Shown here: positions 14,894 to 62,891 of the stretch, one piece after another
How positions within the stretch are numbered: the stretch's first letter is position 1
Layout: every line of letters starts with the position of its first letter
NCBI GenBank assembly: GCA_963514005.1
Contig: OY740789.1
Span: 21,514,001 to 21,578,000 of the forward strand
Reading direction: 5' to 3'
DNA from: Raja brachyura
Taxonomy: Eukaryota
DNA length: 64,000 nucleotides
The notes under the pieces: generated by a model
What the model was told of the DNA's origin: nothing
What the model saw: the letters and a program-made list of their open reading frames with translations, nothing else
The model's database searches: none
Program-made: the position numbers and the translations under genes

Positions 14894-15035
14894 GAGGCAG
14901 CATCTATGGAGCGAAGGAAATAGCCAAACTTTCGGGCCGGGTCTGAAGAAGGGTTTCGACCCGAAACATTGCATATTTCCTTCGCTCCATAGATCCTGCC
15001 TCACCTGCTGAGTTATTCCAGCATTTTTGTCTACC
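14894..15035. mobile_element. Fold-back Penelope-derived repeat
   Basis: GAGGCAGCATCTATGGAGCGAAGGAAATA... inverted against ...TATTTCCTTCGCTCCATAGATCCTGCCTC around a CTGAAGA...GAAAC core. Confidence 0.8.
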
Positions 15036-15065
15036 GCAAAATGTTAATGATTCTGGGAATGCCGA

Positions 15066-15172
15066 TAGAGCTAGAGAGAGACGAGATGGGGAGCGGGAGA
15101 GAGAGAGAGCGCGTGAGAGAGAGAGAGGGAGGGAGGGAGGGAGGGAGGGAGAGAGCGAAAGACAGAGAGACA
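15066..15172. repeat. GA/GGGA-rich microsatellite
   Basis: (GA)n and (GGGA)n runs. Confidence 0.8.
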
Positions 15173-16050
15173 CAACGTGGGTCGGTAGGTAAATTGAATC
15201 ACTAACCTGCCGCACACCAAGAAGCTCACCAAGAATAAGCCCTCAATCATGATGATGATTTTTAAGAAATCCTAAGTAAATGTAATTGTGTTTTGAACAA
15301 GTATTAATGGCGCTGCGTCCCTTTGAATACAATTCATGTGGCGTCATTAACACTTGTTCAAAACACAATTACATTTACTGATGAATGCAGATCGATGCAT
15401 TGATGACACATTGTATAACTACTTATTAACTACTGGCTGTTAACAAGTGCTACAGTAGTAGTTAACACATCGTTTGTGTCTGATGGCTGTGCAGCGGTTG
15501 TTATCCATGTTCATTTTGTAAAAGAATCCGTATGGCTAATGGTTTTTTTTTAATCTTTAATTAACAAAGCGAATTTGTATTTCCACATGAAATACGGAAA
15601 ATTAACCAATCGGACCAATTTGGAAAAATCGGTCCAATCGACTTAAGGCCGGCCCTGGGACTAGGTAAAATCATTGATACAAAGTGGACCTTAAACATTC
15701 TTCCAGGTCGTACAAAACACTACTTGGTCTCACAAGAGGTCTCAGCATTGAATCACAACTACCACAACATGAAAATAAGCCAAATGGTCAGTTGAATCAT
15801 TATTGATTTTTACTTGGGAGCAGTCCAGTTATACTGTGATGCCCTCTCTTCATAGTCCTGCAAATTATTTTTCCCTTTCAACCCTCTAAACTCTTATACA
15901 GTTCTCTTTTGAAAGTTGCAATTGAATATCTAAGCCAGTGTGGAAACCACCCATTTCTTCCCTCCCCATTTGCATTTCATTGTTTCTACTATTTTGTGCT
16001 ACAGCATGTTCATCAAAATAAAATAATAGCTGTTAACACATTCTAAGTAT

Positions 16051-16820
16051 CTATTATCTGAATGGTGGCAGATTAGGTAAGGGGGAGATGCAACGAGACC
16101 TGGGTGTCATGGTACACCAGTCATTGAAAGTAGGCATGCAGGTGCAGCAGGCAGTGAAGAAAGCAAATGGTATGTTAGCATTCATAGCGAAAGGATTTGA
16201 GTATAGGAGCAGGGAGGTTCTACTGCAGTTGTACAGGGTTTTGGTGAGGCCACACCTGGAGTACTGCGTACAGTTTTGGTCTCCAAATCTGAGGAAAGAC
16301 ATCCTTGCCATAGAGGGGGTACAGAGAAGATTCACCAGACTGATTCCTGGGATGTCAGGACTTTCATATGAGGAAAGATTGGATAGACTCGGTTTGTACT
16401 CGATGGAATTTAGAAGATTGAGGGGGGATCTTATAGAAACCTACAAAATTCTTAAGGGGTTGGACAAGCTAGATGCTGGAAGATTGTTCCCGATGTTGGG
16501 GGAGTCCAGAACAAGGGGTCACAGTCTAAGGATAAGGGGGAATTCCTTTAGGACCGAAATGAGGAAAACATTCTTTACACAGAGAGTGGTGAGTCTCTGG
16601 AATTCTCTGCCACAGAAGGTAGTTGAGGCCAGTTCATTGGCTATATTTAAGAGGGCGTTAGATGTGGCACTTGTGGCTAAAGGGATCAGGGGGTATGGAG
16701 AGAAGGCAGGTACGGGATACTGAGTTGGATGATCAGCCGTGATCACATTGAATGGCGGTGCAGGCTCGAAGGGCCGAATGGCCTACTCCTGCACCTATTT
16801 TCTATGTTTCTATGTTTCTA
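16051..16820 (+). mobile_element. Young HER1-type CR1 3' portion (uninterrupted 211-aa ORF2 C-terminus)
   Basis: ORF 16088-16723 with RPHLEYCVQFWSP and RLRGDLIETYK; (TTCTATGT)n tail. Confidence 0.95.
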
Positions 16821-59712: not shown

Positions 59713-60406
59713 ATGAAAGAAGGGGAAAAAAGGATTCTAAAATCGCCAAAAACCCTACAGAAGAAAATTAAAGTGACAGGACAATGGAAGCCAATTATAA
59801 TAGACGCCAGTCGTTTCGGTGAAGAAGATTTGGATGGGCTGGTCTGTTGTGAAGAGCTTACAGATTATAAATTGATTAGTGCTAGGAAATCATCAGTGAA
59901 GAAATCCAAAAGACGAGCTTCTGATAACTCAGAGGAGTTAAAATCTGCACCAAAGAAACAGAAAATCAGTGGAGATGATTTACCAACAGCAGCAACAAAA
60001 ACAAAGATAAAAAGAAAAAAGAAAAAAATTAACAATCAACCTGCCGAAGTGGAGGAGGAGAGTGTTAATCTTTCAGACAATGTTAACAAATTTGAATGTT
60101 CAGATAAAAATGAGATGGGTGAAGCGGAAACAAATATTGCTGTAAATCCAAAGAGAAAGAAAAAGAAGAAAAGGGCTGGAGCTCCCCAGCCCTCCAGTCT
60201 AGACGAGAAAGCGAAAAACTGGACAAAACATTCATGTTCATCTGAGCAGGCAACTGATGTTTCCGCCTGGAAAGATTTGTTTGTCCCAGAGCCAGTACTT
60301 CAGGCTCTGAGTTCTCTTGGTTACAGTGCTCCTACACCTATCCAAGCCTTGGTTCTGCCACCTGCTATTAGAGATAAACTAGATATTCTTGGTGCTGCAG
60401 AAACAG
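59713..60406 (+). CDS. DDX24: DEAD-box RNA helicase DDX24, first coding exon
   Basis: Acceptor TTTTGTCTTAG at 59704. The ORF has the DDX24-type GLVCCEELTDY N-terminal motif, lysine-rich NLS-like tracts, Q motif (WKDLFVP...GYSAPTPIQ) and start of motif I (GAAETG), with donor ACAG|GTTGGT (phase 1). Confidence 0.95.
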
Positions 60407-61499
60407 GTTGGTACTATAATTGTATAAAATGTCACAAATAGATAACGAATAAGTGGTTAACTTTGTCTTTTGAGGCATGGGAAAGGGCTTCCATTTATCT
60501 TGGTTTTTCATGTCCTTGGGTCCTGACCTGAAACATCCGCTATCCATTTCCTGCTACAGACACTACCTGACCAGCTGAGTTCCTCCAACCGTTTTACTTT
60601 TTCTCGGGATGCGCTAATTGGCTACATTTGGTGGAATACCCCAGTTACAGAGAGTGTTAATAAGTCGAACAATATGACAGTCTCGTTACACTCAGCAAGG
60701 CATTACAAATAAAATGAGGTAAATTGCCAAATAGTCTGCTTAAGCAGCACATTGGTTTAGGAGTAAATATTGGCCAGATTCCTGGAAGAACTTTATTTTT
60801 TAAACTAATGTTAAGAGATCATCAGTTGCACTTGAACAGTCAAATAAATCCACATTTTGGACATGTTGAATAGTGCACCATTCCCTCTATTTGGCACAGA
60901 GGTGTCAATCAAAATCATTACTCCTTTTGTGGATCTTATAAGATGCTGATTTACATGAAAATGCTACCACTAAATGAGCCAAGCTGACATTAGCTTGTAT
61001 AATATAAAGAATCTGCTGGATCCTACAAACAACATTTTAGTCCATTCATTCATTGAAAACTTAAAGTTTGTTTGGGGAATTTTATTTTTGTAAAGCTTTG
61101 CAAAGTTTAGTTAATCCCAAATGTAGGTTAGTCATACTTCACATGAGTTAATTAAAACCGAATAGGAGAAATACTCAGCAGGCCAAGCATACCTGGAGAG
61201 AGATTAACATAATTTATGTTTGGGGTTAATTAATTTTGATCAGGACTAGCCTAGTTTGATCTAAACTAGAAATATTAGTTATCTGAAATTGTTGAATTCA
61301 GTGCCTTAATGTAATGTAAATTGAGTGCCTTAATGTACCAAGTTGGAAGATGGAATGTAGTTTGAAATTGCATTTTGCCTTGTATGTTCAAGAATCCATT
61401 GGGGAAAACAAGTCAGAATAGGAATGGGATGAAGAATTAATACAGTTGTACAGCTAAAAACGGGACCTGCGATCCGTCAGGTCCACACCATCCTTTGCA

Positions 61500-62270
61500 C
61501 TTTACTACACTGATCCCACATTGTTCATGCCCTTAAATTGCTCAGAAATGCCAACTATTTGTCCAGATGTTTCTGAATTGTTACAAGCATATCTGCCTAC
61601 GCTATCTCTTCAAACAGCATATTCCAGACCACAACCACACCCGGTGTGAAATATTTTCCTCTCTGATTCCCTCTAAACCTTTTACCACCCACTGTGAATC
61701 TATGCCCTCTTGTTTTGGAGAACCCCACCATGTAATCTATCAGATCACACTCGGTTGTCTTCGTTTCAGGAAAAACAAAGCCAACATATCCAGTCTCTCT
61801 TTATAACTGAAATCTTATCTTTCTGAATCTCCAATGCAACCTCTACAGCACATTTAATCCTTCCTAGGGTGTTGACTAGAATTGCACACAATATTCCAAG
61901 TGTGGCATATCCATTGTTTTAGGAAGTTGTAACATGCTGTCCCTGGTCTTATATTCTAAGCCAAAGTATCTCATATTACTTCTTTGTCATCGTATCCACC
62001 TATGCTGCCACTTTAAAGAATTTGAAGATTGTATTTCAAGATTCCCCTACTCATCAATACGACCATTTACTGTGTACGTCATACACTTTTGTCGTCGTAA
62101 AATCCATCACCTTGCACTTGCAAGATTAAATTCCATTTGCTATTGCTCTGTCCTACTTTCCAGCTGATCAATATCATGCCACAGCCTTAGATAACCTTCC
62201 TCACCATCTGCCGTGCCATCATCTAAAAAATTCCAGATCATGCTTCCTATATTTGTATCCAAGTCATTCA
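61500..62270 (-). mobile_element. Highly decayed CR1 fragment in DDX24 intron 2
   Basis: Remnants of WQMEFNxxKCKVMxF and HLEYCVQF motifs on the minus strand. Confidence 0.65.
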
Positions 62271-62891
62271 GGTGAAGCACTGATTAATTTGTACTTCTAA
62301 TTTACTGTGCTGCAATCAGTACAGTACTCATACAAAAATGTGATCTCTGGATTGGAGAGCCAAACTCAGTTCCTATTTCATGATTAGAGCTCAGTATTGT
62401 AGAGTATCTCTTACTGTGCCTTTATCCCCAATTCATTAAGTCTGTGTTCTTTATATTCAGGCCATCAACCTTGAAATGAAATAGAGACCCTGCTATTTTT
62501 TTGCAGTCTATCGGTGAATCATGATTTAAAAAAATGTATTTACAATAGGAATGAGATGTTTGCTTAAAATTGATTCGCAAATAAGTCTGATGAAAGGTCC
62601 CAGACCTGAAATGTTAACTGATTCTCTTTCCACAGTTACTGCCTAACCTGCTGACTTTCTCCAGCATTTCTTCAGCAGATGAACTAATCAAGTTTTTATT
62701 GTGACAAAAACTTATAAAATACATCTGGTGCTATTATATAATAAAGAAACATTTTTTGATGGATTAATCTTTATAAAATTTCAAGAAATACAGCATTATA
62801 ATTATAATACTGGTTACTTTTCATGAATTCTCACATTCTAGATATGCCATTCAAGACAAATTAAACAACTCCTTTTCTTTTTAATTTGTAG

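Follow-up and report, generated by a model that had tools for sequence, protein, structure and literature searches.

Within the window, the stretch of 64,000 nucleotides of the Raja brachyura genome analysed here, a short motif resembling the core of the hammerhead ribozyme recurs many times, raising the question of which element carries it and what it does for that element. Minimal hammerheads in the pLTRs of metazoan Penelope-like elements (PLEs) were already described in 2014 (Cervera and De la Pena 2014, PMC4209133), so the motif as such is expected; their role in PLEs is called an open question in PMC8557442.

The motif and its copies in the window

All ten copies listed in the initial annotation were recovered at their positions by comparison with the 28-mer of the core and, for 62587, with a variant carrying U at N7 (Table 1). 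The window also holds copies at 50037-50064(-), 35130(+), 37352(+), 46218(-), 46757(+), 47376(+), and 57141(-). The earlier label of near-intact is overstated for several copies: only those at 54324, 57435, 48107, and 32730, 4 of 14 scored, keep the core, helix II, the palindromic pair, and helix I together. Helix I, formerly given as 2-3 bp, has 2 bp, since position 2.3 lies opposite a mismatch.

Table 1. Features of the 64-kb window, with mismatches of the cores to the 28-mer
Feature	Position	Strand	Mismatches	Basis or remark
Inverted arm and stub; core 14943-14970(+) without palindrome	14888..15030	.	3	
Head-to-head stub pair, ends in tail; core 31375-31402(+) without helix I	31309..31503	.	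0	14-bp TSD
5'-truncated PLE, broken GIY-YIG frame and pLTR; intact hammerhead 32730-32757	32664..33227	-	1	sense in intron of presumed PPP4R4
Head-to-head pair; cores 35097-35124(-, helix II broken), 35130-35157(+, core broken)	34985..35222	.	2 (35097)	10-bp TSD
Decayed core	37352..37379	+		
First two coding exons of presumed PPP4R4	44916-45008, 43585-43658	-		further exons lie beyond the window start
Rearranged PLE end; decayed cores 46218-46245(-), 46757-46784(+)	46193..46833	.		
Core with 1-nt deletion	47376..47402	+		
Older-subfamily core, all four features kept	48107..48134	+	2	H17=A, wobble pairs
Stub starting at C3, without helix I	48682..48709	+	1	
Young stub starting at U4 (C3 missing); 28-mer at 50037-50064	49972..50063	-	1 (at C3)	
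5'-truncated PLE insertion: GIY-YIG frame end, pLTR, hammerhead, first 3' end	53975..54417	+		99% identity to L023 5908-6346; 16-bp TSD 53953-53968 / 54417-54432
Minimal hammerhead, C3 to H17, every feature kept; predicted cut after 54351	54324..54351	+	0	motif and feature scoring
Decayed core, helix II and palindrome broken	54590..54617	+	3	
Older head-to-head stub; core 57141-57168(-)	57045..57233	.		
Short partial tandem in which the 5' part of the element meets a pLTR end; intact hammerhead 57435-57462	57334..57666	-	0	
DEAD-box gene intron holding the 62587 copy; donor 60406, acceptor 62892	60406..62892	+		Pfam DEAD match
Old copy, N7=U, 5-bp helix II, without helix I	62587..62615	+		sense in DEAD-box gene intron

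The motif contains the conserved core (C3-A9, G12-A15.1, U16.1, and H17) and a 4-bp helix II with a tetraloop; G10.1-C11.1 closes this helix, and a single additional base follows A9. The closing pair is G-C in 144 of 204 copies and G-U in 26, a pattern of CpG decay, and positions 15.2/16.2, palindromic for a dimeric helix III, have C/G majorities of 0.85/0.73, the losses being CpG transitions. Helix I (U with A or G, then G-C) equals the shortest published rows. Common variants sit at tolerated places, namely loop II, U-A to U-G at 10.4/11.4, C or U at H17, and A or G at 1.1. The minimal hammerheads of PMC4209133 share the core boxes, the extra base after A9, G10.1-C11.1, and the palindromic 15.2/16.2, as well as the U-rich 5' flank, the placement in both pLTRs, and the thousands of dispersed single copies. 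The helices II and I of the skate element stand at the short end of their range, and a 2-bp helix I is also found in D. virilis, Culex, and Oikopleura (Fig. S3 of that paper). By eye, the nearest row is Neptune of Acropora digitifera, and cartilaginous fish are absent from the Fig. S3 rows compared. Judged by its sequence, the motif fits the published consensus and is a further example of the kind of PLE hammerhead described in 2014.

Equal conservation of core and flank had been named at the outset as an argument against a ribozyme. Conservation of at least 0.9 was found in 10 of 10 non-CpG core columns and in 33 of 51 flank columns (p=5e-4), in a test on 204 of 430 copies that is biased, since alignment over the core was required and C3 is an edge column. 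Core conservation could reflect a promoter role instead. The core, helix II, and the palindrome are kept together in only 45 of the 204 spanning copies. At the subfamily level helix II shows one-sided changes only and no two-sided compensatory change, with A-U at pair 1 in 5 of 204 copies. No hammerhead model of Rfam matched up to E=5, the sub-threshold matches to MIR1507 being head-to-head hairpins. Six folds were compared with shuffled sequences and none scored better; within a longer stretch of sequence, the core is predicted to pair with downstream pyrimidines. A search for hammerheads with N7=U returned 1,517 matches versus 18 in the control; nearly all of the 100 matches listed belong to the same family and therefore provide no cross-family covariation.

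The parent element

Genome-wide, the exact 28-mer has 50,608 matches (25,374 and 25,234 by strand) and its reversed control 0 and 0, indicating that the motif is not due to chance. Profile matches to the family number about 400 per Mb, and the family greatly outnumbers the 4,000-9,000 copies given for coelacanth and Xenopus (PMC4209133). The proposal of a young, very high-copy PLE family that carries a minimal type-I hammerhead motif is borne out. The further proposal of a separate short retroelement family is not, because the stubs have the same sequence as the pLTR and 5' end of an autonomous 4-kb Neptune-type element; the fit to the published minimal hammerhead (Cervera 2014) likewise speaks against such a family. 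On this identity, the short copies are stubs of the autonomous Neptune-type PLE.

At locus L023, two pLTRs with hammerheads, identical at 504 of 505 aligned bases, flank an intact RT/GIY-YIG ORF of 1,191 aa, and the two hammerhead cores lie 3,989 nt apart (3,984 nt at locus L030). The RT precedes the GIY-YIG domain, with the RVT_1 and GIY-YIG matches both below the Pfam gathering cut-offs; DKG and YIDD motifs are visible, and a Cys-rich linker, C-x4-C-x2-C, precedes the GIY-YIG domain. Three open frames of 1,203 codons occur among 143 scored matches, and a PDB sequence search with the ORF gave 0 matches. The element shares with Neptune-type EN+ PLEs (PMC8557442, PMC3846280) the single ORF with RT, Cys-rich linker, and C-terminal GIY-YIG, and also the partial tandems, the inverted 5' copies, and the tail of 30-40 nt, whereas its ORF has a long Pro-rich N-terminal part. 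By ORF layout, Cys linker, and copy forms, rather than by a tree against reference PLE proteins, we classify it as a Neptune-type EN+ PLE.

Copy ends and the RNA that was copied

Because the family is young, has intact ORFs, and has reached an enormous copy number, the ends of its insertions preserve an extensive fossil record of the RNA that served as template. Copy 5' ends are analysed here, unlike in the portion of PMC4209133 used for comparison, and the counts come from samples of copies. Among young exact-core copies, 48 of 78 start 0-4 nt before C3. In an unbiased sample covering 1.064 Mb, for which the downstream flank served as seed, 20 of 47 copies begin between -4 and +1, including 2 from other subfamilies whose own pLTR continues; 8 extend at least 30 nt further, and 4 start at +29. 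At the other end, 50 of the 78 young copies stop between +89 and +96 and 22 between +127 and +132, two clusters about 35-40 nt apart. TSDs of 8-17 bp surround 14 of 30 simple stubs (control, 1%), which argues against capture of host exons. A depth peak over the hammerhead-to-tail part was also seen in contigs whose RNA status is mostly guessed; it is uninformative on expression, starts, and cuts.

The two 3' clusters resemble the two internal RT start sites that define the tail of PAc, the Poseidon element of Anolis carolinensis, whose hammerhead cuts only with protein and whose main template is uncut RNA (Frangieh et al. 2024, PMC11167929). The PAc ORF begins inside helix II, whereas here the first Met lies 163 nt past C3, placing both clusters inside the 5' UTR. 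Starts at +29, the first base after the predicted cut, were mapped at base level in 2/224, 5/319, 5/462, and 6/528 copies at identity cut-offs of 0.95, 0.93, 0.90, and 0.88 (P = 0.09, 0.007, 0.12, and 0.11, respectively); since this excess depends on the threshold, we treat it as weak. Start positions taken from profiles, a method that blurs boundaries, show no pile-up at the cut site. The copy ends suggest that the copied RNA was mostly uncut, and the sharp 5' boundary likely records run-off copying to the RNA start. We consider it probable that the hammerhead sits in the pLTR of a young Neptune-type PLE whose stubs are run-off products of mostly uncut RNA starting 2-4 letters before the core.

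Under this model, Pol II would start at the initiator-like sequence on which the boundary falls, so that the RNA would open with the hammerhead as its first ~31 nt, which would limit helix I to 2-3 bp. The element protein would nick DNA and initiate cDNA synthesis within the RNA, near +90 or +130, for which the anole PAc provides an in vitro precedent, and the cDNA would run off the RNA end and be joined as a stub of ~95 or 130 nt. Fold-back of the cDNA could yield a head-to-head pair, and a template jump partial tandems. The hammerhead may be a weak cutter in need of a dimer or the element protein, and a cut would take off a capped leader of 31 nt. In full-length L1 insertions, an extra G is a mark of the cap (PMC11702581). 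Of 22 young stubs here, 14 carry such a G at the first untemplated position (expected 0.23, p=7e-5, post hoc). In older subfamilies it does not replicate, at 5/15 (expected 0.25, p=0.31) and 4/7 (expected 0.39, p=0.27).

This failure would also suit a hammerhead that is real but whose 5' boundary is a hot spot where RT stops or switches template on a longer read-through RNA, at a structure, a bound protein, or the short palindrome at the core edge, and RTs are able to add untemplated bases. Read-through templates do exist, since 35 of 106 young copies continue upstream, and 28 of the 106 carry an inverted arm at the boundary, with microhomology. Simple stubs that lack an arm, however, make up 43 of the 106, and many of them have TSDs; the boundary coincides with the initiator-like sequence and lies on the distal (5') side of the structure, whereas the usual place for RT to stall is the near side. 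We regard such a stop as unlikely.

It is more doubtful still that the motif no longer cuts and is kept as a core-promoter or protein-binding sequence at the element 5' end, hammerhead-like by descent. The 2-bp helix I, the unfavourable folds, the missing covariation, and cut-site starts in at most about 1-2% of copies speak for it, and with A(-3) taken as +1, positions +29 to +32 agree with the DPE consensus in 4 of 5 letters. In Xenopus, 8 of 9 dimer elements showed no cleavage in vitro (bioRxiv 2026.07.22.740005). The sequence variation nevertheless follows hammerhead tolerance, the similar minimal motif of PAc cuts with protein, and exact +29 starts are in excess among young copies at one of the four thresholds.

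We give little credence to the boundary being a 3' splice site, with stubs copied from spliced RNA. Among 68 long copies, the pyrimidine-rich stretch is indeed followed by an A at -3 (fraction 0.90) and a G at -2 (0.97), and D. virilis Penelope offers a precedent of another geometry, with a start site 46 nt before an intron that ends at helix I and the hammerhead after it. An intron within the pLTR is disfavoured because the stubs have no upstream exon in common and the splice position -1 is the start of only 4 of the 43 simple stubs; in several, the TSD directly adjoins the core or is separated from it by a few bases. No GT..AG was found among the 15 joints listed, with 72 further joints outside that listing.

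Host genes and the meaning of the boundary

The minus-strand gene at 43585..45008 we take to be PPP4R4, and the DEAD-box gene at 60406..62892 is presumably DDX24. The exon expected after exon 2 of the former was looked for and not located; from the exon positions, with later exons beyond the window start, the copies at 32730(-) and 35097(-) are intronic and sense, as is 62587. The significance earlier attached to this orientation does not hold up, since one of the three is intact and strand bias is absent: the PPP4R4 span carries 13 sense and 13 antisense copies, of which 1 and 0 are intact (small numbers). The dispersed intronic copies look like passengers for the host genes. Non-LTR retrozymes likewise have a type-I hammerhead and a PLE origin (bioRxiv 10.64898/2026.07.22.740005; PMC7229834), and they form tandem arrays, whereas the window copies are dispersed stubs or head-to-head pairs, with no head-to-tail units each carrying a hammerhead. 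That the motif marks an independent retrozyme or SINE-like element whose sense copies cut host pre-mRNA, as the initial annotation implied, is scarcely credible despite the match density, the stubs with TSDs, and the intact sense copy in PPP4R4, given the equal strands, the absence of tandem arrays from the window, stubs that match the autonomous element with no upstream sequence, and the lack of any copy with both its ends at the cut site, as expected of a unit circle.

For the run-off reading, we tentatively advance a more specific form as a possibility. The hammerhead would form the opening ~31 nucleotides of a transcript made by Pol II and capped, and would overlap its own internal promoter (an initiator with DPE-like spacing), and the cut would be a protein-gated self-decapping switch. 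Most of the ~1 million stubs would be strong-stop-like cDNAs marking the RNA start, head-to-head PLE junctions would be explained by fold-back priming, with no need of an antisense template, and starts at +29 would go back to rare cleaved templates. Should the RNA begin at the hammerhead, releasing unit-length RNA from a precursor for copying could not be the main role of the motif. Its action would instead be on the cap, which would explain both the short helix I and the head-to-head junctions.

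Abundance and parent element

All ten motif places named in the initial annotation were recovered by sequence search of the window, and a motif search located seven further cores. The exact 28-mer, the core from C3 to H17, has 50,608 matches in the 2.7-Gb genome versus 0 for the reversed control, and 22 versus 20 expected in an arbitrary 1.064-Mb sample (the window together with a hundred 10-kb stretches). That sample holds 430 profile matches, about 400 per Mb, in line with the very high copy number first claimed; extrapolated from it, copies of all ages number roughly one million genome-wide. 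The family is also young, as proposed: of 47 sampled copies of the young subfamily, 17 are free of mismatches across 55 nt, and 33 have no more than two.

The 32730(-) copy comes after a broken GIY-YIG frame. The genome was searched with this region and then with the 268-aa frame of a relative; this yielded 164,592 candidates, and the 143 that were scored include at least three open frames of 1,203 codons. Two genome stretches, L023 (contig G000:C30 of the source genome) and L030, share the layout pLTR-hammerhead / 5' UTR / ORF / pLTR-hammerhead (pLTR, pseudo-LTR). The pLTR pair of L023 is identical at 504 of 505 aligned bases, and the lengths differ in poly-C runs. Its ORF matches RVT_1 (E 4e-4) and GIY-YIG (E 2e-3), both below Pfam cut-offs, and shows the motifs DKG and YIDD. 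It also has a Cys-rich linker, a feature that PMC8557442 and PMC3846280 describe as a mark of Neptune and Nematis elements. The Pro-rich N-terminal region found no match in Pfam or PDB searches. Because identity between the copies in the window and this element is 76-99%, they are stubs (short copies) of an L023-type element and not another family, and the separate short-retroelement family originally proposed is not supported.

The sense orientation reported for intronic copies was right at 32730(-) and 35097(-), within an intron of presumed PPP4R4, and at 62587(+), within an intron of a DEAD-box gene that we take to be DDX24, but 32730 alone of the three is intact. In the part of PPP4R4 covered, copies number 13 in each orientation, and these small numbers do not suggest that sense copies are selected against.

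Features of the L023 element, rearranged copies, and other repeats
Sequence	Positions (strand)	Feature
L023	2264-2291	Upstream pLTR hammerhead, then 5' UTR
L023	2427-5999	ORF, 1,191 aa
L023	2427-3800	Unusually long ORF N-terminal region, Pro-rich stretch of ~300 aa
L023	6253-6280	Downstream pLTR hammerhead
L220 (stretch with element copies)	4542, 4608 (+)	Two consecutive 66-nt units, each from hammerhead G12, forming a short tandem from parts of the element
Window	13095-13193	Head-to-head stub, small, made solely of sequence 3' of hammerhead plus tail
Window	46250-46950 (+)	PLE ORF end repeated three to four times in staggered form, hammerhead stub inserted between the repeats; looks like repeated template jumps
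Window	51661-53335 (+)	Broken pol-like LTR-retrotransposon frames; motifs resembling RT and RNase H seen by eye
Window	8956-11396 (+)	Fragmented L1/Tx1-like ORF2, several frames (by eye)
Window	3500-6980, 16037-18773, 24077-25800, 34525-36470 (both strands)	Many LINE 3' fragments, 75-95% alike; presumably CR1-type
Window	584-856, 7744-8016, 33729-34109, 50070-50405 (last, -)	3' ends of second LINE family; last immediately precedes hammerhead stub at 50063
Window	39744-40090	22-nt tandem repeat, ~12-15 units
Window	38300-39250	C-rich low-complexity DNA beside the 22-nt repeat

Ends of the copies

At the 5' edge of the hammerhead, coverage of the element jumps about sevenfold; a literature search covering few subscription papers found no account of such a 5'-end pile-up at a PLE hammerhead. 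From the first 100 among the matches listed, 87 exact-core places were fetched, of which 9 were set aside and 78 belong to the L023 subfamily. Among these 78, selected for an exact core, 48 have their first base 0-4 nt before C3, and widening the limit to 7 nt brings this to 51. When 47 copies in the 1.064-Mb sample were seeded from the downstream flank, 20 started at -4 to +1 relative to C3 (two of them other-subfamily copies with the pLTR continuing), 8 ran on at least 30 nt upstream, and 4, one ambiguous, started at +29, the first base past the predicted cut. Of four identity cut-offs applied, just one made the excess at +29 significant. With every subfamily counted, the first 664 kb of the sample hold 260 copies, of which 99 break off near C3, 72 extend beyond it, and 89 have an internal start. 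A reverse-transcriptase stop on read-through RNA seems to us unlikely as the source of this edge.

Target-site duplications of 8-17 bp surround 14 of 30 simple stubs versus 1% in the control, and these stubs are therefore whole insertions. Young copies (n = 106) comprise 43 simple, 28 with an inverted arm, and 35 long ones. On contig G000:C1, about 7 of 100 listed matches to the N7=U variant show another core-like heptamer, 9 nt upstream of the true one; this is probably where the inverted arm joins in one subfamily. Simple stubs that begin at -2 or -3 carry G as the first untemplated base in 14 of 22 cases (expected 0.23; post hoc, as it was noticed before testing), a result not replicated in older subfamilies (5/15 and 4/7). 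A comparable extra G in L1 reflects the cap (PMC11702581). The 3' ends of the 78 L023-subfamily copies lie at +89 to +96 in 50 and at +127 to +132 in 22, resembling the two RT start sites that delimit the tail of PAc, the Poseidon PLE of Anolis carolinensis (PMC11167929).

Conservation and activity of the hammerhead

Judged from its sequence, the motif is real and was correctly named a minimal PLE hammerhead. It agrees with the consensus of Cervera and De la Pena (PMC4209133) in its core boxes, the additional base that follows A9, G10.1-C11.1, and palindromic 15.2/16.2; its helix II has 4 bp plus a tetraloop, and its helix I of 2 bp has counterparts in the D. virilis, Culex, and Oikopleura rows there. 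Among the 204 copies spanning the core, of the 430 profile matches, non-CpG core columns average 0.956 versus 0.866 for the flank (p = 5e-4; alignment over the core was the entry condition), so the core is the better conserved, contrary to the second outcome that the initial annotation named as refuting its reading. Frequent variants are located in loop II, 11.4 (wobble), H17, and 1.1. No two-sided covariation was found in the helices of these copies, no hammerhead match in an Rfam scan of the window, and no fold that beats shuffles. Core, helix II, and palindrome are all kept in only 45 of the 204, and all features in 4 of 14 scored window copies.

In published tests, minimal PLE hammerheads showed no activity in monomeric form and little as dimers (PMC4209133), cutting by the anole PAc hammerhead depended on the element's protein (PMC11167929), and 8 of 9 Xenopus dimer elements were inactive (bioRxiv 2026.07.22.740005). 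A catalytically dead motif is in our view improbable.

A proposed route to the copies

The scheme that we infer, at every step, and regard as probable combines a start 2-4 nt before C3 with priming and run-off, fold-back, or template jump. Transcription would begin at an initiator-like site at that start, and the hammerhead would form the first 31 nt of the RNA, seldom cut before copying. An internal promoter is plausible here because the Penelope element of D. virilis carries a TATA-less promoter that is internal and includes a DPE (PMC2377424); there, unlike in the proposed layout, the hammerhead comes after an intron. Reading the 5' edge as a splice acceptor is very unlikely. Under the proposed scheme, the element's protein would prime cDNA at a point about 90 or 130 nt from the start of the RNA; this cDNA could run off the RNA end to give a stub, fold back to give a head-to-head pair, or jump template to give a partial tandem, for example at 57334-57666. 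Fold-back of run-off cDNA is our alternative to the self-priming on an antisense template by which Arkhipova et al. 2013 (PMC3846280) explain head-to-head junctions.

That these stubs of an autonomous element are an independent retrozyme acting on host RNA is highly improbable. Retrozymes are reported in one chondrichthyan (bioRxiv 2026.07.22.740005). A search of few subscription papers, without Repbase, found no description of the present family, which the supplements of that preprint may list. The value of this family lies in its record of RNA ends more than in the hammerhead motif itself.
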